Origin: Promethearchaeota archaeon
GTDB lineage: Archaea; Asgardarchaeota; Lokiarchaeia; Sigyniarchaeales; SOKP01
Reading direction: 5' to 3'
NCBI GenBank assembly: GCA_016840165.1
Contig: JAEOSU010000080.1
Coordinates: 150,036-214,035, forward strand
DNA length: 64,000 bases
The position numbers were made by a program, and so were the translations under genes. The notes beneath the pieces are model-generated. The model searched no databases and was not told where the DNA came from. It saw only the letters and a program-made list of their open reading frames with translations. Below, in pieces: positions 20,474 through 29,263 of this stretch (positions are counted from its first letter, which is position 1; the number at the start of each line of letters is the position of its first letter).

Positions 20474-22876
20474 TTATTTATTTTTAAATTTATAATATAA
20501 GGCATTATCTAAAATTTTACCAATTTTTGTTGCTATTATTTTGGATATCAAATATCGTTCACCATCAAGCATTTGAGCAATATCATTAGAAGTAGGTATG
20601 TGATCCAGTCTTTTTCCTAAAACCTCATTAAGGATTGATTGAATATCCAGATCAATTTTGCTAGATTCTAATAAGAGTTCATCTGGTATAAATTGCTTGA
20701 GTTTTTCTATAGTAAAGCGATAATAATCAACGAATCCATTAAGATAGTCATTATTTTTTTCACTATGTAGTTTAATGTTGTCTGCACAAGTTTTTGTATC
20801 TTTTTCTTGCCAGTAAAACCGATTAGGATTAATTCCTTTGCGAGTGATTCCCATTAAAGCGGAAGTGATTCTCCTTTCAATCCAATTTAAAGTACTTTCT
20901 TGTTGAATCTCAATTATTTCATTTCTTTTTAGTTCTTTCTTCTTTTGCTCTTCTTTAATTACTTGTTTTACAGAAGATCTTCTTGACTCTTCAAATATTT
21001 CTAATCTTTTTATAAGATCGAATGCAATACAGTATGAGATGGGAGATATCAAATCTGCTTTTAAAGTTAAAGGTTTTATACCATCATATATGAAACTAGG
21101 ATTATTTCTTAATTCGTTTATACAATTTTTTAAAGATCCAGATATAAATCTTGACATAATAAATCCATTGACTAAAAATATTTGATTTTTGGCATTAAAG
21201 ACCGTAACTAATTCCTTTTGTCTCTTCATAATACGTTTAATAATTAGCTCTTCTAACTTTACATTTACCCAATCTTCATTCTCTAGAGTGCCCTCCATTT
21301 TTTTAATGGCTTCATTGATAAGACTCTTATCATTTGTAATTTTGTGGTATAATTCAATAATTCTGCTAAGTTGCCTAAAGATTTTTGAGAAATTATAAAA
21401 ATAGATATCTTTTACAATGTTATCAATGATTTCATCAAAATTTAAAATAAATATGATTTGAGAGTAGTTGTTTAAATTTAGTTCATGAAAAAAAATCTTA
21501 TCAATAATTTGTTTTTTTCGTGCAAACTCTCTTATATCATTTATAGAGCACCCTATTTTCTCCTCTAGAATCATCCATAATTTTGCTAACTGTGGCTCAT
21601 CCCTATATATTAACTTATTTAGTCCATATTCCAAGAAATTTTTATTATTTTCGATAAAATTTTTTATCTCAGGAATTTGTATATTACACAGTACTTGCTT
21701 TGCTGAGTATAATAAGTCTTTATTCTTATCATTTAAGTATAAAAGATCCTGTTTTTTAATATTATAACGAAGCATTTTTTTCTTTACATCTTCAACTAAA
21801 GTCTCATCAACATTAAAAGTTTGTAAGATGTCATGAATGCCCCTTTTGTTCATATTAAAAATGATTTCATCAAAACTAGATTCACTTATGCATTCCAAAT
21901 AATACAAAAAATCATTAGGATGCGTTTTTAATTGTTTGATTAACTCCTTTCTAATTAATAGCTTAATTTCTTGCTCAAATAAATCAAATTCAATTTTTTC
22001 ATGCATCTTATTTCGGATATACTCAATAATATCATGTTTGAGTTTATTAGCTTCTTGAAAAACGATTAAACCCTCAACAGAAATTGGAAATTTGTTGAAT
22101 TCATAATTATAGACCCTCTTTTTTATCATTCTTACTGGCATTGCTTCAATTTGAAGTTCCTTATACGAGTTAAATTCAAATTCTTGTTGAACTTTTTGAA
22201 TAAGTCGGTTCAATGTTGATATTTCTAAAAATAAGTCTTCCTTTTCTTCTATTTCTAACTTTTTTTCTAAACTAACGGATATTGCTTTAAATGCTGAACT
22301 TTCTTCCAATATCTCTTCTCTCAGATTATTATTATATCCCATTAGATCTCCAACAAAATCATAAAAGTAAAAGGGAGGATTGTTTGAAATAATATGAATC
22401 ATTTTTTCTTCGATATTATTTTCAATTTCTCTTAACTTTTTTGATTGCTCATCCTCTTGAAGTTTAGCAATTCTTTCTTCTATTAATAAAGCTATAAATA
22501 AATTTTCTATGTTAATCAATTGAAATAACATATCAATTTCTTGTTGGAAAGAATCTTTTAATAGCATTTCAATCTCTTCCATTAAAATCCTTTTTTCCTT
22601 CAATTCTAACTCTCTAGCAGCCTCATAAGAAAATTTATTCTTTTCATAAACATCAGAAACCTTGATACCTATATTATGGTAAAGATGAACTGCTGCAGTT
22701 GCGATAAGTAGCTTATCTAAAGTATTAGTGTTATCTACAAGTTCAAAAACCTTCTGTTTGTCTTTTTCTCGGTTCAAATGAGAGATTATAGCATTCGTTG
22801 TTTTAAAGTATCTTTTAGCGCTTTCAATTGCCGTTTTCTTACGTTTAATTCCACTTATCATACTTCTTTTAACCAC
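20474..22876 (-). CDS. Large hypothetical alpha-helical protein
   Basis: 800-aa ORF overlapping the upstream gene. Confidence 0.8.
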   Translation of the reverse strand: MVKRSMISGIKRKKTAIESAKRYFKTTNAIISHLNREKDKQKVFELVDNTNTLDKLLIATAAVHLYHNIGIKVSDVYEKNKFSYEAARELELKEKRILMEEIEMLLKDSFQQEIDMLFQLINIENLFIALLIEERIAKLQEDEQSKKLREIENNIEEKMIHIISNNPPFYFYDFVGDLMGYNNNLREEILEESSAFKAISVSLEKKLEIEEKEDLFLEISTLNRLIQKVQQEFEFNSYKELQIEAMPVRMIKKRVYNYEFNKFPISVEGLIVFQEANKLKHDIIEYIRNKMHEKIEFDLFEQEIKLLIRKELIKQLKTHPNDFLYYLECISESSFDEIIFNMNKRGIHDILQTFNVDETLVEDVKKKMLRYNIKKQDLLYLNDKNKDLLYSAKQVLCNIQIPEIKNFIENNKNFLEYGLNKLIYRDEPQLAKLWMILEEKIGCSINDIREFARKKQIIDKIFFHELNLNNYSQIIFILNFDEIIDNIVKDIYFYNFSKIFRQLSRIIELYHKITNDKSLINEAIKKMEGTLENEDWVNVKLEELIIKRIMKRQKELVTVFNAKNQIFLVNGFIMSRFISGSLKNCINELRNNPSFIYDGIKPLTLKADLISPISYCIAFDLIKRLEIFEESRRSSVKQVIKEEQKKKELKRNEIIEIQQESTLNWIERRITSALMGITRKGINPNRFYWQEKDTKTCADNIKLHSEKNNDYLNGFVDYYRFTIEKLKQFIPDELLLESSKIDLDIQSILNEVLGKRLDHIPTSNDIAQMLDGERYLISKIIATKIGKILDNALYYKFKNK

Positions 22877-25197
22877 TCTCTATAAACTTCTTTAAAATTA
22901 TCTAATATTTCAATGTTCACTTTATTATGCCAATATTTGAAATTTAAAACATGAAATAGATCAGCAATGAATAAGTCATTCTCATCATTAGTAAGGTTAT
23001 GTTGCAATATGAGTGTTTTAGGGCGAGGAATTAATGAAGAGAAAAACTTTAGACTTTTTTCATCAATATAAGTGAGGAATGAAACCTCATCATCAATATG
23101 AAAAAAATCTAGTGGCGTTATTGAATCATTCTCTATTACAATTAAATTTAGTTGTTGTATAATTTTATCACGCATATATTTAGGAAATTCCGTTCTGATA
23201 CTAATACAATATTTATATAATTCATAAAATTCTAAAAGTAGGGTCTTTTCTTCGGAATCTGGTACTTTCCCGATATAATCATCTAAGAATAATATAAAGT
23301 TCTCAATTTTTTGTTCTTTCTTCTCTCTTGATTCAAAATAATTAATAAAATCGATATAGATATCTTTTAATGACCAAACTTTTTGTTCTTCTATTTTAAA
23401 AAACTTTTTTGCATAATCTCTAACCCAACTTAAAATATAGTCTTTCCATACTAAAGTTATACCCCCTATTCTCCTTTGCAAAAACCTATGAAACTTATTG
23501 GCAAAAGTAACTGGATCAGCTAATTCTTTTTCATTCTCTTCTTTTAAAAATCGATTTATAGTCGAATATCTTAGAATATAATTTAATAAGTATTTCAATT
23601 CAAAAGAAAATTTTTCAAATTTATCCAAATGAGGTTTAATCTTACTGGAGTTTGACTCCATCTGAATTTCAACAAATGAAACTAACTCTCCAATATTTAA
23701 TTCAATTTTCTCAAAAAATAATTTTAAATTCTCACCAATTATATTCTTAAATACCCTTATTATATTATCCTCATTATATTGTTGAGTTTTTGAAACTTGT
23801 TCTGATTTTATTTCTATTTTATTTAAAAAATATGATTCAAATTTGTCTAGAATTGTATTTCCAAGAACTTTTGCTGGTTTCTTTTCTGTGGCTAAACTTT
23901 CTCTCACCCTATAAATTAAATTTTGAGCTATCAAATATAACTTTCTATAAGAGAGAAATGCTGGTAATTCTTTTTTAATTAAGTTGAGGTTCGAGTTAAA
24001 AAGTTCAGAAAAATAATTAATAGCGGATTGCAACTCAATTGCTATTAATGTTTCCTTTTTTTGGATTTTATTTGATATAGAAAATAATGCCAAATCAATA
24101 TACTCTCCAAAGTTCTCTCCTTGTTTGGTATCAAAACCACTTGTAATTGAAGATTTATACTTTTGTAAAATCTCATTAAGGTTTCCTCGCTCGCCTGAAC
24201 TTAAAAATGAATGAGATTCTTTTAGAAAAGAATTAAGTTCAATTTCTATCTCATTTAAGTAAATATCAACTTTTTTAATCAAATCGTTTCCATTTTGTAT
24301 ATCATTTTTTTGGTTTAGTTTCTTTTCAAGTGATTTTATAATAAATTTCGCAATTCTTTCTTGAGATTCATCAACTGTTCCTGTATTTGCCAGCATTAAT
24401 AAATTAGAACCTAATTTTAAAGTGTTATCTATGATAAAGTTTATACTCGGTTCGGAAAGAGTAAATTTTAAATGCTCATTTGCAATATGTTCCTCGTATG
24501 GTGTTTCTATTTTTTTAAATACCGGATTTTTAAATATTATCTCTTTTGGTTTTTTATTCCAAAAGATATCTACCTCATTAATGAGAGATGCATAAGCTGT
24601 TAGCATTTCCTTTTCAGTTGGTAAAGATTTACTTATTCCAACAAGTTTTTTATTCCACTTATCCTCAATTAAATCTCCAAAAAGTTTCTTAATGAACCTG
24701 TTTATGAATTTGTTTAAAACCTGTGATTTTTGATCTAGATTTAATTCAGGGCGTTCGGTAAATTCTTCAATTTCATAAAATAACTCATTAATTTTATCAA
24801 CAGAATTTTTTGATTTATGGATATCAATATGCCCCGTATCTGGCTTTAAAGTAATAAGTAGACTTTCACAATCTTTATACTTACCTGGTATCATTAACAT
24901 TGATTTTGGATAAATTTTAGTTCTTGAACTCTGATCCCCTACATTAAACAATTCATATTCAATACTAAATACCTCAGACCCTGTATAATCCCTCAATATA
25001 GCATTGTACATTCTAAGAAACTGAATTACTTTTTGGGTCAACTGATTTACTTTCGCACGGGTTAATTTTCCAGGACCTATAATATCTCCAACAATTATTT
25101 CCTTTGGTGAGGAATAGCCAAATATCAATGAAAATTGATAATTAATCAGTTCTCTGGTTGTTATCATAATTTCAAACAATCTCAAATAAAAGGTCAA
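22858..25197 (-). CDS. Large hypothetical alpha-helical protein (start probably ATG 25167)
   Basis: ~770-aa ORF. Confidence 0.8.
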   Translation of the reverse strand: MTFYLRLFEIMITTRELINYQFSLIFGYSSPKEIIVGDIIGPGKLTRAKVNQLTQKVIQFLRMYNAILRDYTGSEVFSIEYELFNVGDQSSRTKIYPKSMLMIPGKYKDCESLLITLKPDTGHIDIHKSKNSVDKINELFYEIEEFTERPELNLDQKSQVLNKFINRFIKKLFGDLIEDKWNKKLVGISKSLPTEKEMLTAYASLINEVDIFWNKKPKEIIFKNPVFKKIETPYEEHIANEHLKFTLSEPSINFIIDNTLKLGSNLLMLANTGTVDESQERIAKFIIKSLEKKLNQKNDIQNGNDLIKKVDIYLNEIEIELNSFLKESHSFLSSGERGNLNEILQKYKSSITSGFDTKQGENFGEYIDLALFSISNKIQKKETLIAIELQSAINYFSELFNSNLNLIKKELPAFLSYRKLYLIAQNLIYRVRESLATEKKPAKVLGNTILDKFESYFLNKIEIKSEQVSKTQQYNEDNIIRVFKNIIGENLKLFFEKIELNIGELVSFVEIQMESNSSKIKPHLDKFEKFSFELKYLLNYILRYSTINRFLKEENEKELADPVTFANKFHRFLQRRIGGITLVWKDYILSWVRDYAKKFFKIEEQKVWSLKDIYIDFINYFESREKKEQKIENFILFLDDYIGKVPDSEEKTLLLEFYELYKYCISIRTEFPKYMRDKIIQQLNLIVIENDSITPLDFFHIDDEVSFLTYIDEKSLKFFSSLIPRPKTLILQHNLTNDENDLFIADLFHVLNFKYWHNKVNIEILDNFKEVYREWLKEV

Positions 25198-25442
25198 AAA
25201 TTTTTTTTTTAGACCTTTCTAAAATTAAATAACTTATAGTAGAAGTAGTATTAAAATTTATTTTGGATAAAAATTCTAAACTTTTTTCTCCTAATGGTGC
25301 TGTCATTATTTAATAACATTTTCTGGAATTATTTCTATGTATTGAATTAGAATTTCAAAATAAATAAATAATAAGATTTTATTTAATTCTATATTAGAGA
25401 AATAATTTTAATTAATAACTAAGGAAGAAGGTTTTTTAAAAA

Positions 25443-25847
25443 TTGCAATTTGGTTCAGATCTCGGGATTCGTGATGATGATATTGAAAAAATTAGCCCTC
25501 AAGTTACATTTATTACTTCAAATGCAGATATTGAAGCAATAGCGTTAGTATCCCAAGAGGGATACCAAATAGCATTTTCAGCGCTTCCTCAATATCAAGT
25601 TGATGGTGATCAATTTTGTGGTTTAGCAAGCGCATTATTAATGACGGGAAGCTCAACAATTCAAACGTTATTTCAAGAAGATTTGAGCGAAATAATTGTA
25701 AGGGCAGAAAATGGATATATAGTCATTAGCAACGCGGGAAGATTAGTGATTGTCTGTGCTGGAACAATTATTGACACCTTAATGAAAACAGTTAAAGTAA
25801 TGAGGATAGCATCTAAGAATTTAAGTAAAATATTTGAAAATAGATAA
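25443..25847 (+). CDS. Roadblock/LC7 (MglB-like) protein
   Basis: IEAIALVSQEGY..; EIIVRAENGYIVI. Confidence 0.9.
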   Translation: MQFGSDLGIRDDDIEKISPQVTFITSNADIEAIALVSQEGYQIAFSALPQYQVDGDQFCGLASALLMTGSSTIQTLFQEDLSEIIVRAENGYIVISNAGRLVIVCAGTIIDTLMKTVKVMRIASKNLSKIFENR

Positions 25848-25909
25848 GAGAAAATATTTATAAGTATGCTAATCTTTTTAGAATCTAAATAAACCCATGG
25901 TTCAATTTA

Positions 25910-25963
25910 ATGCTGATTTTTTTTATTAATGATAGGACTTGGCATTGTTTTTGGCATCCTTAG
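25910..25963 (+). promoter_or_regulatory. Putative Trp leader peptide ORF (MLIFFINDRTWHCFWHP) with overlapping hairpin upstream of trpB2
   Basis: Two in-frame TGG codons; stems AATGAT/ATCATT and GGCATTG/TAATGCC; downstream U-rich tract. Confidence 0.5.
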
Positions 25964-26113
25964 TAATGCCTAATCATTGGTTTAAAATCTTATTTATCTT
26001 GTTTTTAAGTTTTGAAACACTTGCTTAATCCAAAATATTGCATTTAGCAATATTGCCTATATTTTTTTGAATTCCAATTAAATTATGAAACAATTTATAT
26101 TATTATACAAAAA

Positions 26114-27538
26114 TTGTTAATGATAAGTGAAAGAAAAATGAATAATTTTCTTAATTCGAGGGTTATATTAAAACCAGACGAAACACCAAAAGAATGGGTA
26201 AATATTTTACCATATCTTCCCATTCCAATGACGCCTTTAGTAAATCCAATGGATGGAAAACCCGCCTCTTTTGAACTAGCTACTATGATTTTTCCAAAAA
26301 GTTGCGTTTTACAGGATACTTCTATGGAGGAAAATATTCCTATTCCAAAGGAACTGAGGGATCTTTACGTAAGAACCTACAGGCCATCCCCGCTACATCG
26401 AGCATATGGTTTAGAAACATTTATTGGAGTAAAAGGAGAGGATATTAAAATTTTTTATAAAAATGAATCTCTATCTCCTACGGGGTCTCATAAACCTAAT
26501 ACTGCTTTAGCACAAGCATATTATGCTCAAAAAGAAGGGGTAAAAGAACTAGTTACTGAAACGGGTGCAGGTCAATGGGGTTCCGGACTGTCATTTGGAT
26601 GCAGTTTATTTAATATTAAGTGCACAGTCTATATGGTTAGAGCAAGTTTTTTGCAGAAACCAGGTAGAAAAATCCTTATGCAAGCTTTCAATGCAGAAGT
26701 CCATGCTAGCCCATCAAATCTTACCGAATCCGGGAAATTATACTATGATAAAGACCAGAATCATCCTGGTAGTTTAGGAATTGCCATTTCAGAAGCAGTT
26801 GAACATAGTTTATCAGATGCGAATATAAAATATTCATTAGGAAGCGTAGTTAATTTTGTTTTATTACACCAAACGATAGTAGGTCAAGAACTTAAGATAC
26901 AATTTAACAAGATAAAGTTAATACCTGATATTTTAATAGGTTGTATGGGAGGAGGTTCTAATTTTGGTGGGTTTATAATACCCTATATCAAAGATAAAAT
27001 CAATGGAGATATGCCCGATTTAGAAGTGATTGGTGTTGAACCTAGAGCATGTCCAAGTGTTTGCAAAGGAAAATATATTTGGGATTATGGTGATTCTGCA
27101 AAAAAAGCACCAATTTTAAAAATGTATACATTAGGCCACAATTTTATTCCAAGCCCCATTCATGCGGGAGGGCTAAGATACCACGGAATGGCACCAATAA
27201 TCTCGATTTTAAACAAAAAGAAAGTAATACGTTCAGTGATGCATCATCAAACGGAAGTTATTGAGGCGGGGTTGATATTTGCAAAATCAGAAGGGATAAT
27301 CCCTGCTCCTGAAGCATGTCACGCTGTAAAAGAAGCAATTGATCAAGCATTAAAAGCAAAAGAAAATAATGAAAAGAAGGTAATAGCGTTTAATTTTAGT
27401 GGACATGGTTTCTTCGATTTATCTGCATATAATGAATATCTATCGAATAAATTGATCGATTATGAATTGCCCGGTTTCGAGATTCAATCATCACTGAGTT
27501 CGGATGATATGCCAAAGGTTAATGAAGCAGAATTTTAA
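26114..27538 (+). CDS. trpB2: Tryptophan synthase beta chain, TrpB2 type
   Basis: GSHKPN (PLP Lys), ETGAGQWG, GGGSN, HAGGLRYHG, SGHG. Confidence 0.95.
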   Translation: MLMISERKMNNFLNSRVILKPDETPKEWVNILPYLPIPMTPLVNPMDGKPASFELATMIFPKSCVLQDTSMEENIPIPKELRDLYVRTYRPSPLHRAYGLETFIGVKGEDIKIFYKNESLSPTGSHKPNTALAQAYYAQKEGVKELVTETGAGQWGSGLSFGCSLFNIKCTVYMVRASFLQKPGRKILMQAFNAEVHASPSNLTESGKLYYDKDQNHPGSLGIAISEAVEHSLSDANIKYSLGSVVNFVLLHQTIVGQELKIQFNKIKLIPDILIGCMGGGSNFGGFIIPYIKDKINGDMPDLEVIGVEPRACPSVCKGKYIWDYGDSAKKAPILKMYTLGHNFIPSPIHAGGLRYHGMAPIISILNKKKVIRSVMHHQTEVIEAGLIFAKSEGIIPAPEACHAVKEAIDQALKAKENNEKKVIAFNFSGHGFFDLSAYNEYLSNKLIDYELPGFEIQSSLSSDDMPKVNEAEF

Positions 27539-27615: not shown

Positions 27616-28698
27616 TTGAATATTCTTTCATTAGTCATTGTTAGCATTTTATATGTTTTTGGAGTGTTTTTATTATACATTTCATATTTGTCTAAAAAAA
27701 AGGGGGACAAAGGAGCATATATTAATAATATTTTCAATTCCATTATTTTCTTAGTAAGTATTACCGTTAATCTAATTATTGTGAATCTCTTCCATTTTTC
27801 TAATATCGATTTCATAATTTTTCCTTTTGATGTTTTTATAATTGTATTTATTTTGTTTTTTTTCCCTATTTTCTATTTATCTGTTTATCGAGAAAAAAAG
27901 AATATAACCACACGTTTACCTTATAATTCAAAAAATCATTATCCTTTATTTAAAGAATTACCATTGAAATATGAGCTATATCGTAAATTAACGCATCTGA
28001 TTGTATTAGGAATTATATTTTTTTATTTTACTTTAGGGTTTTGGGTTCAAAATTTTTTTTTAAACATTTTAGATTTTTTTCCTGAAATAATTTCTGATTT
28101 ATTTTTATCATTTTATAATATTGAAGGTGATAAGATGATTTTTACTCAGTATTTGGTCGTATTTTTAGTCAGCATAACACTAATAAGCTTTTTTACAGCA
28201 GATTTTACGAGAATTTTAAAACCAGAATTGTACCCGTTAAAACCCATAAATAAAATACTTAGAAAAAAAGAGCTAGGGCTAAGATTCGGACCACATATCT
28301 CAATGGCAATTGGTTGTTTCTCCATAATTATACTTTATGGATTATTTCAACCAATTGGACCAATTGTTATTTGCAGCTCAATGACAATGGCAATATTCGG
28401 TGATATTACAGCAAATTTAATTGGTAGAACAATAGGCAAAAAAACAATAAGAGATACAAAAAAGACTTATGAGGGTTTAATCGCTGGTATAATAGCGGCA
28501 TTTATTTCTGGAATTATTAGTTTACTTTTCTTAAATGAATTTTATTCAATTTCTCTCATATTCTTAATTATTGGTCCTTCTATTGGTTCTTTAATAGTTG
28601 GTATAATAGATTATTTAAGCTTAGAAATTGATGATAATCTAACCAATAACTTCTTTCTATCAACAATATTGTTTTTTATTTCACTTTTAATTTTATAG
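27616..28698 (+). CDS. CTP-dependent polyprenol/diacylglycerol kinase (dolichol kinase/Dgk1-like) membrane protein
   Basis: ELYRKLTH; GD..A.LIGR..GK; KKTYEG; DDN. Confidence 0.85.
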   Translation: MNILSLVIVSILYVFGVFLLYISYLSKKKGDKGAYINNIFNSIIFLVSITVNLIIVNLFHFSNIDFIIFPFDVFIIVFILFFFPIFYLSVYREKKNITTRLPYNSKNHYPLFKELPLKYELYRKLTHLIVLGIIFFYFTLGFWVQNFFLNILDFFPEIISDLFLSFYNIEGDKMIFTQYLVVFLVSITLISFFTADFTRILKPELYPLKPINKILRKKELGLRFGPHISMAIGCFSIIILYGLFQPIGPIVICSSMTMAIFGDITANLIGRTIGKKTIRDTKKTYEGLIAGIIAAFISGIISLLFLNEFYSISLIFLIIGPSIGSLIVGIIDYLSLEIDDNLTNNFFLSTILFFISLLIL

Positions 28699-28756
28699 GA
28701 TTTTTTTTTCTCAATATACCCAAATTTTTTCAATAAAAATAATTTTATTTCAAAAG

Positions 28757-29263
28757 ATGTTAGAAGAAAAATTAAAAATAGATAAAATAAAAAAGGGCAC
28801 TGTTATAGATCACATTGATGCCGGTTATGCGCTTACAATTCTTAATCTTACAGGTTTGGATGAAACTACAAACCTCATGACTATTGGTGTGAACGTGTCT
28901 TCAAAAAAGTACTCTAAAAAAGATATAATAAAAATTGAAGGTGTTTTCCTAAATGAAATACAAATGCAGCAGATTTCAATATTATCTCCTAATAATTCTA
29001 TCTCTTTAATTGATAATTATAAGGTAATTGAAAAAAAGAAAGTAAAAATCCCTAAAGTTATAAAAAGATTGATCGTGTGTGTTAATAAAACCTGTATTTC
29101 AAATTCTAATAAGGAACCTATTGATTCGGAATTTATAGTTTTAGAAGAGAAACCATTGAAGATTCAATGTTCCTATTGCAATCGGATATATAAGCTAAAT
29201 GAGATAAGGTTTAGCTCAAAGGGAAAAACTGAGAAGAAAGTTAAACAAAAATTTCAATTGTAA
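28757..29263 (+). CDS. pyrI: Aspartate carbamoyltransferase regulatory chain
   Basis: GTVIDHI, KDIIKIE, CVNKTCISN, CSYC. Confidence 0.96.
   Translation: MLEEKLKIDKIKKGTVIDHIDAGYALTILNLTGLDETTNLMTIGVNVSSKKYSKKDIIKIEGVFLNEIQMQQISILSPNNSISLIDNYKVIEKKKVKIPKVIKRLIVCVNKTCISNSNKEPIDSEFIVLEEKPLKIQCSYCNRIYKLNEIRFSSKGKTEKKVKQKFQL

Follow-up and report, generated by a model that had tools for sequence, protein, structure and literature searches.

A conserved tryptophan-codon leader upstream of trpB2 in Asgard archaea, a candidate ribosome-mediated attenuator

Tryptophan leaders and the trpB2 locus of an Asgard archaeon

Leader-peptide attenuation is a textbook bacterial mechanism of gene regulation and needs ribosomes that follow close behind the polymerase. 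The known control of archaeal trp genes is protein repression, by TrpY of Methanothermobacter, and a full-text search of a literature collection that is incomplete turned up no account of an archaeal leader-peptide attenuator, which does not prove novelty. Here we describe a short upstream open reading frame (uORF) with two tryptophan (Trp) codons in a structured leader 5' of trpB2, the gene of a stand-alone TrpB-like enzyme, in a Promethearchaeota archaeon. The stretch analysed (the window) is 64,000 nucleotides (nt) long and comprises positions 150,036 to 214,035 of contig JAEOSU010000080.1 in GenBank assembly GCA_016840165.1. Comparison with related genomes makes it fairly probable that a genuine ribosome-mediated attenuator for an amino acid, nested in its architecture, operates in Asgard archaea, the closest known relatives of eukaryotes. 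This leader would relocate to guard the entry point of tryptophan synthesis, which is the stand-alone trpB2 where indole-3-glycerol phosphate synthase (IGPS, TrpC) was not found and the trp operon in genomes having it.

The enterobacterial trpL leader (Rfam RF00513) offers the nearest comparison. In both systems a short leader open reading frame (ORF) carries Trp codons a few codons before its stop; written up to that stop, the peptides end in GWWRTS in Escherichia coli, WQWPWRS in relatives of the window genome and TWHCFWHP in the window. Both also place these codons in a hairpin's 5' arm, with a U-rich tract farther on, upstream of genes for tryptophan biosynthesis. The Asgard leader differs from trpL in having no sequence or model match to RF00513, and in its helices, which are nested with an outer helix around the whole ORF, where trpL has tandem 1:2 and 3:4 pairs. 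No conserved antiterminator was found in the Asgard leader, its U tract is not attached to a GC-rich hairpin, its host is an archaeon, and a further 100 nt of conserved sequence lie between the U tract and the gene.

Other described systems share parts of this design. TnaC of the tna operon, an arrest peptide that senses free Trp and acts through factor-dependent termination, is a Trp-containing leader peptide with its critical residues near the stop codon, and in both systems a stalled ribosome could shield RNA from a factor (Rho for TnaC, possibly FttA/aCPSF1 in archaea). However, the TnaC peptide is conserved (W12, D16, P24) and induces a catabolic operon at high Trp, whereas the N-terminus of the Asgard leader varies, only its Trp codons are kept and its target is biosynthetic. 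In rtpLP of the Bacillus subtilis anti-TRAP operon, three Trp codons in the leader ORF serve as a gauge of uncharged tRNA-Trp and control how strongly the following gene is expressed, as Trp codons may here; the rtpLP stop codon adjoins the next ribosome-binding site and a T-box lies upstream, whereas the Asgard leader has a gap of about 175 nt and no T-box. TrpY likewise controls archaeal tryptophan genes, and palindromes near the start of trpB2 could suit such a DNA-binding regulator, but TrpY is a protein repressor acting at the promoter and the Asgard element is a leader RNA that is probably translated. Finally, the eukaryotic uORFs of GCN4 and the arginine attenuator peptide are also small ORFs in long 5' leaders that tune an amino-acid-related gene. 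Unlike the reading proposed here, they act through scanning and reinitiation or through peptide arrest rather than hungry codons in alternative RNA folds, and there is no homology.

Conservation of the leader and its association with tryptophan genes

The gene 3' of the leader is identified as trpB2 by NCBIfam NF009057 (E 1e-185) and TIGR01415 (E 2.5e-176). Loci of trpB2 were collected from 40 related genomes, and 22 of these loci belong to the same genus as the window. A homologous uORF is found at the same place, about 210–240 nt 5' of trpB2, in 22/22. Typical leader peptides of the genus are MVTENFDFCWQWPWRS, MATDKNSFWRWQWPWRF and MLTEKMTFWRWQWQWRS, each written to its stop. Most hold three or four Trp codons (WxWxW) just 5' of the stop codon, with WQWPWRS-like tails, and the number of TGG codons in relatives ranges from two to five. 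Trp makes up 12–25% of the residues in these peptides, against 1.0% in the long ORFs of the window genome. The N-terminal residues vary freely; what is kept are the Trp codons and their closeness to the stop.

The reading frame is also maintained. The aligned start codon is ATG in 18 loci, GTG in three and ATT in one, with an in-frame TTG one codon upstream of the last; the ATT is in L002 (G007:C57), from the closest sequenced species. The distance from start to the conserved TGG is 36, 39, 42 or 51 nt and thus a multiple of 3 throughout. TGA, TAA and TAG are all used as stops, and the stop comes 3–4 codons past the last Trp in 18 of the 22. The window belongs to a two-Trp sublineage with genome G007 and the metagenome-assembled genome (MAG) AMARA_5S, in which the Trp count is constant at two and the positions differ (VWPWHCYR in G007, TWHCFWH in the window and AMARA_5S). 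A contig from an independent study that spans the region has both TGG codons and the window's run of eight T identical, and the sole change in the uORF is one single-nucleotide polymorphism (D8N); such aligned contigs show presence and variants only. In another genome of the genus trpB2 is present twice on one contig, the copies being separated by about 15 kb (G151:C50; L161 and L166), and each has its own Trp-rich leader (MIIWFNFMATGNYYFWQWPWSWL and MILSMATEKNTFWRWQWPWRF).

Beyond the genus, uORFs rich in Trp precede trpB2 in at least nine other Asgard families. In other families of the order the Trp-rich uORFs before trpB2 often have WxW, the C-termini being WAWPRRE, FWPWQ, SWAWH, PWAWRP and TWPWH. 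Trp uORFs also stand before trpB2 in further Asgard families of Thorarchaeota type (MVSRVYHYQWHWGPRGPV) and Borrarchaeum type (ending SWHPWHSWRWQ). In the distant families the last codons or the stop fall within a hairpin or have one directly after them, and the sequences cannot be aligned. Sequence matching with the leader model described below did not extend to genus g16 or to the other families of the order; these were found through their Trp-rich ORFs. Several families in the Asgard phylum sample have no Trp-rich uORF before trpB2, and none of 21 non-Asgard archaeal trpB2 loci has one. Three bacterial trpB2 loci, from an uncultured bacterium, Smithella and a Bacteroidales MAG (L045, L061, L077), have classical WWW(W) leaders with 3–4 consecutive Trp codons, and attenuator logic is therefore used on trpB2 elsewhere.

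Does the leader follow trpB2 or tryptophan synthesis? TrpA, IGPS and TrpE were not found in the window genome, which is 99.7% complete, so TrpB2 is the only tryptophan-forming enzyme detected there. Two genera of the same family, g13 and g16, have no uORF before trpB2. All five of the g13 and g16 genomes tested that lack it contain IGPS and a trpDCFBAEG operon, and in 5/5 a Trp-containing uORF with a stop-loop hairpin is found before that operon (for example MHAYKFKLGWQWPWRFE and MFRKNLNLKVPSSTWFWVWCWHA). There it lies about 175 nt 5' of the first gene, a spacing equal to that at trpB2. The model made from trpB2 leaders matches the operon leader in three of the five (E 5e-11 to 2e-6), where the TTGATTTCC...ACACATC module follows. 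Conversely, IGPS was found in 0/5 genomes that carry the leader before trpB2. The position of the leader therefore follows the step at which tryptophan synthesis is entered, in a pattern that amounts to few independent events (two genera against two) with IGPS as the one operon marker tested. This is what a tryptophan regulator would predict. The ribosome-mediated Trp sensing proposed in a sequence-only reading of the window thus gains support, as do the conserved Trp uORFs before trpB2 that it had suggested looking for: every locus of the genus and many other Asgard families have a homologous or analogous uORF, and the leader stands before the operon where an operon exists.

Loss of the leader was also seen. 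In genome G172 the trpB2 locus (L155, G172:C11:31506-31871) has a decayed leader that has kept the TATA box and the AACGC...CATTGG 3' arm, with the start and all Trp codons deleted; the same genome holds an intact Trp leader before its own trp operon. In the operon leader of G167 a TGG is changed to TGT. The g13 operons have an extra conserved ORF of 80–83 amino acids (...IIFGPEKSKTAKFIAEN...) between leader and trpD, overlapping the trpD start, which may encode a small regulator; tblastn found no relative of it in the window genome.

Fold of the leader and the module 3' of it

A covariance model was built from the 22 genus leaders, and 36 leaders of the family were aligned to it. Applied to the whole leader alignment of 326 columns, RNAalifold predicted no pairs, and the helices were therefore defined by hand and with the covariance model. 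Three helices recur: an outer helix around the uORF, a helix between the start region and the first Trp codon, and a hairpin at the stop codon. In relatives the outer helix joins AUGGUUU 5' of the uORF start to AAACCAU 3' of the uORF. Over the 36 leaders, 82.5% of cells are paired, against 33–51% in slid registers, and 39 cells are changed on both sides, against 13.4 +/- 4.9 in shuffles (0/500). Compensatory change is seen in six of the seven pairs of the outer helix, one of which is GC in 16 leaders, AU in 13 and GU in five. A MAFFT alignment gives 84% paired against 36–48%. In folds of single sequences the outer helix was recovered in 10 of 12 leaders (z -1.5 to -3.3). The homologue of the stop-codon hairpin in relatives, GGCGUU/AACGC, is 89% paired, with compensatory changes. 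The homologue of the start-region helix, GGUUACUG/CAGUGGCC, is seen in the folds of relatives, and its columns are 73% paired, against 33–48% in five of six slid registers and 63.5% in the -3 register; this helix is plausible, not proven.

The window retains all three helices with altered sequences, in a fold of -21.4 kcal/mol. In the window genome only this locus is a significant match to the leader model (E 6e-8), and the next match has E 6.6. The Trp codons sit inside these modelled helices, and a ribosome stalled on them would break the pairing. Either the uORF start region or the CAUnGG block can serve as partner of the Trp region, and the 3' arm at 25972–84 of the window has three possible partners. 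Two other pairings were tried and rejected: the seg2/seg3 "antiterminator" (AUGG with CCAU) is present in a few species only, and the pairing of CAUUGG with a distant CCAAU block has 5 bp only.

Everything listed in the sequence-only reading is present in the window, and much of its structural interpretation has changed. The uORF with two Trp codons in a repeated TGGCAT reads as described, each TGG directly before CAT (25940–45 and 25952–57). The TATA-like TTTATAA is there too, although one base 5' of the position 25858 given for it. That reading had either GGCAT copy pairing with ATGCC (25966–25970) in mutually exclusive hairpins closed by AATGAT (25928–33) and ATCATT (25973–78). Both pairings are possible and are nearly equal in energy (-5.8 kcal/mol for copy 2, -5.2 for copy 1), but this alternative is confined to the three-genome sublineage, the closure adds a marginal 0.3–1.2 kcal/mol, and the helices that are conserved are the three described above rather than those first proposed. 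It had also suggested that an upstream ATG (25897), which opens the frame MVQFNADFFY, might join the Trp frame by a +1 shift in a run of eight T (25917–24). The run is the same in the independent-study contig mentioned above, but it is not conserved (five T in L031, no run in G007), and the upstream ATG lies in the covarying 5' arm of the outer helix and opens a frame of 2–7 codons in most relatives. Such a shift is therefore not upheld.

The leader has its own promoter element. A TTTATAAGT-like box is found 50–57 nt 5' of the uORF start in most same-genus loci, and from the usual archaeal spacing between TATA box and start, transcription of the leader is predicted to begin about 25 nt 3' of the box, near 25886. 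At the other end, the U-rich tracts reported after the leader are present and T runs are enriched in relatives: 26 of the 36 leaders have a run of at least five T within 50 nt 3' of the outer helix, against 29% of intergenic background windows, and the T fraction is 0.51 against 0.37 in the background.

The U tract is followed by a second conserved module, made up of an inverted repeat, a TATA-like element, the TTGAATTCCAAT block, a species-variable hairpin and the ribosome-binding site. In relatives the palindrome is built on TTGCA..TGCAA, and its spacer is often only 2 nt long, a length better suited to a DNA site than to a hairpin in RNA. The TTGAATTCCAAT block is nearly invariant in the genus and is present in the trp-operon leaders too. 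A second exact copy in the window genome, the only other one, lies inside a coding frame and fits chance expectation. The hairpin 5' of the ribosome-binding site is formed by different stems in relatives (CAUCAU/AUGAUG, CACAUC/GAUGUG, CAUUUUUA/UAAAAAUG, CAUAAUU/AAUUAUG). A proximal TATA box, TTTATATT at 26094, was considered and rejected; it is in the variable loop of this last hairpin and is not conserved. This second module could be the expression platform of a long leader, or a separate trpB2 promoter with operators, and a conserved promoter-like module lies at about 26055–26090. The coordinates of all features are listed in Table 1.

Table 1. Features of the trpB2 leader region (window positions, unless a locus is named)
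Feature	Position	Strand	Remarks
Roadblock/LC7 gene	25443–25847		Pfam; stop is 10 bases before leader TATA element
Leader TATA box TTTATAAG	25857–25864	+	TTTATAA at 25857–25863
Outer helix, 5' arm UAAACC-C-AUGGUU	25890–25902	+	Just 5' of uORF start; 12 bp with 25972–25984
Inner helix	25908–25947	+	uORF start region UAAUGCUGA (including AUG) with first Trp-His codons UUGGCAUUG; in minimum-energy fold
Leader uORF, MLIFFINDRTWHCFWHP	25910–25963	+	17 codons and TAG; Trp codons 25940–42 and 25952–54
Stop-codon hairpin	25953–25970	+	GGCAU (second Trp and His codon) with AUGCC; TAG in loop; -5.8 kcal/mol
Outer helix, 3' arm AAUCAU-U-GGUUUA	25972–25984	+	Overlaps conserved CAUnGG block able to pair with Trp-codon region
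U-rich tract	25989–26013	+	Candidate archaeal termination site; T5 at 26002–06, T4 at 26010–13
Perfect inverted repeat AATATTGC-ATTTA-GCAATATT	26034–26054	+	RNA hairpin or DNA operator; then T7 at 26062–68
Conserved block TTGAATTCCAAT	26067–26078	+	Palindromic ATTGGAnTCCAAT in relatives; possible operator or ribosome-binding-site partner
Hairpin AACAAUUU / AAAUUGUU	26089–26118	+	Just 5' of trpB2 ribosome-binding site
trpB2	26138–27538	+	Stand-alone TrpB-like pyridoxal phosphate enzyme; proposed regulated gene; start fixed by alignment with relatives
ORF of 80–83 amino acids in g13 operons	L175:8449-8688; L176:11597-11845; L177:8557-8802	L176: -

A proposed mechanism and its alternatives

What is seen here is the uORF, its Trp codons, a promoter box, RNA helices and a link with tryptophan genes. 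The explanation that accounts for them best, and that we moderately favour, is a cis-acting leader that would sense tryptophan supply through the ribosome, with conditional termination as its output. The two parts of this explanation differ in strength: the sensor is well supported and likely, while termination as the output is put forward tentatively, at slightly less than an even chance. We infer that the uORF is translated, that a stall alters the fold, and that termination, not translation, is the output.

In this mechanism, transcription would start from the conserved TATA box, and ribosomes would then translate the uORF of 17 codons. Its two Trp codons are part of an RNA segment that would otherwise fold into a compact domain. 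This domain would consist of the outer helix around the whole uORF, the helix of the start region with the first Trp codon, and the hairpin that contains the last Trp codon and has the stop codon in its loop. With ample charged tRNA-Trp, the ribosome would run to the stop and come off, the domain would fold, and most transcripts would end in the U-rich tract and perhaps also in the T7 run beyond it. When charged tRNA-Trp is scarce, the ribosome would stall on the Trp codons and hold the domain open, so that the polymerase would read into trpB2 and more of the enzyme that turns indole into tryptophan would be made. The archaeal polymerase terminates at oligo-U and does not require a hairpin. 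Conditional termination is favoured because the leader possesses a promoter box of its own as well as a U-rich end that is conserved, and because archaeal polymerases stop at oligo-U. A factor-dependent version is possible, in which the stalled ribosome would shield the RNA from FttA/aCPSF1 as TnaC does against Rho.

If this is true, the prokaryotes closest to eukaryotes would use functional transcription-translation coupling as a means of regulation. A conserved Asgard leader with Trp codons would provide a direct and testable signal of transcription coupled to translation, and would show how a ribosome can govern an oligo-U-terminating, eukaryote-like polymerase. It would also explain how TrpB2 indole salvage is tuned in genomes where the genes of the de novo pathway were not found. 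An unannotated small ORF before Asgard tryptophan genes could serve as an annotation marker.

Several observations weigh against the mechanism. Taken alone, the window feature is not beyond chance and is weak evidence: it has just two Trp codons, 13 of the 3519 intergenic small ORFs with an ATG start in the genome carry at least two Trp in their last 10 codons, and the window fold has a z-score of only -1.1 to -1.75 against shuffles. Its significance comes from the comparison with relatives and not from the single sequence. These relatives are kin and not independent, so the locus counts overstate the support, and an alignment fitted to the model, as was used for the paired cells, leans toward the modelled helices. 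No alternative antiterminator pairing is conserved across the genus, CAUnGG/CCAU being found in a few species only. When a ribosome was placed on the Trp codons or on the stop in equilibrium folding, access to the ribosome-binding site of trpB2 did not shift consistently. T runs are common in a genome of 32% GC, as the background value shows. The run also lies 8–25 nt past an AU-rich outer helix, with no GC-rich hairpin directly before it, and this is therefore not a bacterial-type terminator. Lastly, the conserved promoter-like module near trpB2 (palindromes, TATA-like box, TTGAATTCCAAT) could be a separate promoter, and in the sister genus g16 (L157) it persists before trpB2 without a uORF.

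Could the same sensor act on translation? Stalling would then refold the leader and free the ribosome-binding site or start codon of trpB2, in the manner of ermC-type translational attenuation, and of the alternatives this unlikely one survives best. In the ermC and cat leaders, as here, a ribosome stalled on a leader peptide would remodel downstream pairing, and the ribosome-binding site appears partly sequestered in many Asgard relatives. The UUCC of the TTGAATTCCAAT block pairs with the GGAA ribosome-binding site in 9/22 minimum-energy folds of the genus, with a covarying hairpin nested inside, and the base beside UUCC varies with its partner (U:A, A:U, G:U). The hairpin covers the start codon in L020 and part of the ribosome-binding site in L016–L019, and in family f5 the ribosome-binding site, which lies 66 nt past the uORF, is covered by a CCUCU...GGAGG pairing. 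However, this pairing of UUCC with GGAA fails in about half of the genus, including the window, and the TTGAATTCCAAT block is itself a DNA-type palindrome. Unlike in ermC and cat, the Asgard stall would come from scarce charged tRNA rather than a drug, and the start codon is much farther away, 160–180 nt from the uORF stop. Modelling found no consistent switch either, the mean accessibility in footprint-masked folding being 0.42 for free RNA, 0.45 and 0.40 with stalled ribosomes and 0.41 with a ribosome at the stop.

A little less likely again is an arrangement in two units. The uORF RNA would be a separate small transcript that stops at the U tract and acts in trans (as RNA or as Trp-rich peptide) or by promoter interference, and trpB2 would be expressed from a proximal promoter under a DNA-binding regulator at the palindromes. 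The TATA box and U-rich end of the leader agree with this, as do the TATA-like element between the palindromes, the spacers of the repeats at 26034–54 and of ATTGGAnTCCAAT, which are too short for RNA hairpins in many relatives, and the 3' module without a uORF in L157. Attenuator-derived RNAs and leader peptides with roles in trans are known in Sinorhizobium (PMC6614838, PMC7298713). Against such an arrangement, the uORF is always directly 5' of a tryptophan gene and on the same strand, at a nearly constant distance (about 150–180 nt) from two different target genes. The 5' module is joined by the 3' module at trpB2 and operon loci alike, and nothing else in the genome matches the leader model.

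That the window leader is a decaying relic, reduced from 3–4 Trp codons to two, with rearranged helices and perhaps no regulatory role left, we consider improbable. Decay is real nearby, in the leaders of G172 and G167 described above, and the G007 copy starts with TTG or ATT in place of ATG; the low Trp count and weak single-sequence statistics of the window would also fit. Yet the frame, the two TGG codons and the stop are intact in three genomes and in strain variants from other studies, and the window preserves its three helices through changed sequences. Two Trp codons are, moreover, enough in E. coli trpL. A structured non-coding sensor, like a riboswitch or T-box, in which UGG repeats would be structural or binding motifs and the open frame incidental, is very unlikely: it would suit a conserved covarying fold with UGG triplets every 6 nt in most relatives, but indels of 3, 6 and 15 nt have left start codon, frame and nearby stop in place, the codons between the TGG codons vary in distant families (GCN, CAG, CCN, CAU) while TGG and the following stop persist, and Rfam has no significant match.

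This last result comes from cmscan of 25000–27000 at E up to 10, which returned one sub-threshold hit to a snoRNA family (E 9.9) and no match to the Trp_leader model. The other two-Trp small ORFs of the window genome do not adjoin tryptophan genes. One of these, a small ORF encoding MIIYNNLNFWW (G000:C62:4994-5029), stops 24 nt before a cytidylyltransferase-like gene (MGGTFDHLHQGH...); it has no link to tryptophan and is probably due to chance. In the surroundings of the leader, two overlapping ORFs of 800 and 779 amino acids with no Pfam match are found on the minus strand (20474–25197), divergent from the Roadblock/LC7 gene. At 27616–29263, 3' of trpB2, a multi-pass membrane protein of 360 amino acids (sub-threshold CTP_transf_1 match) is encoded together with PyrI, the regulatory chain of aspartate carbamoyltransferase.

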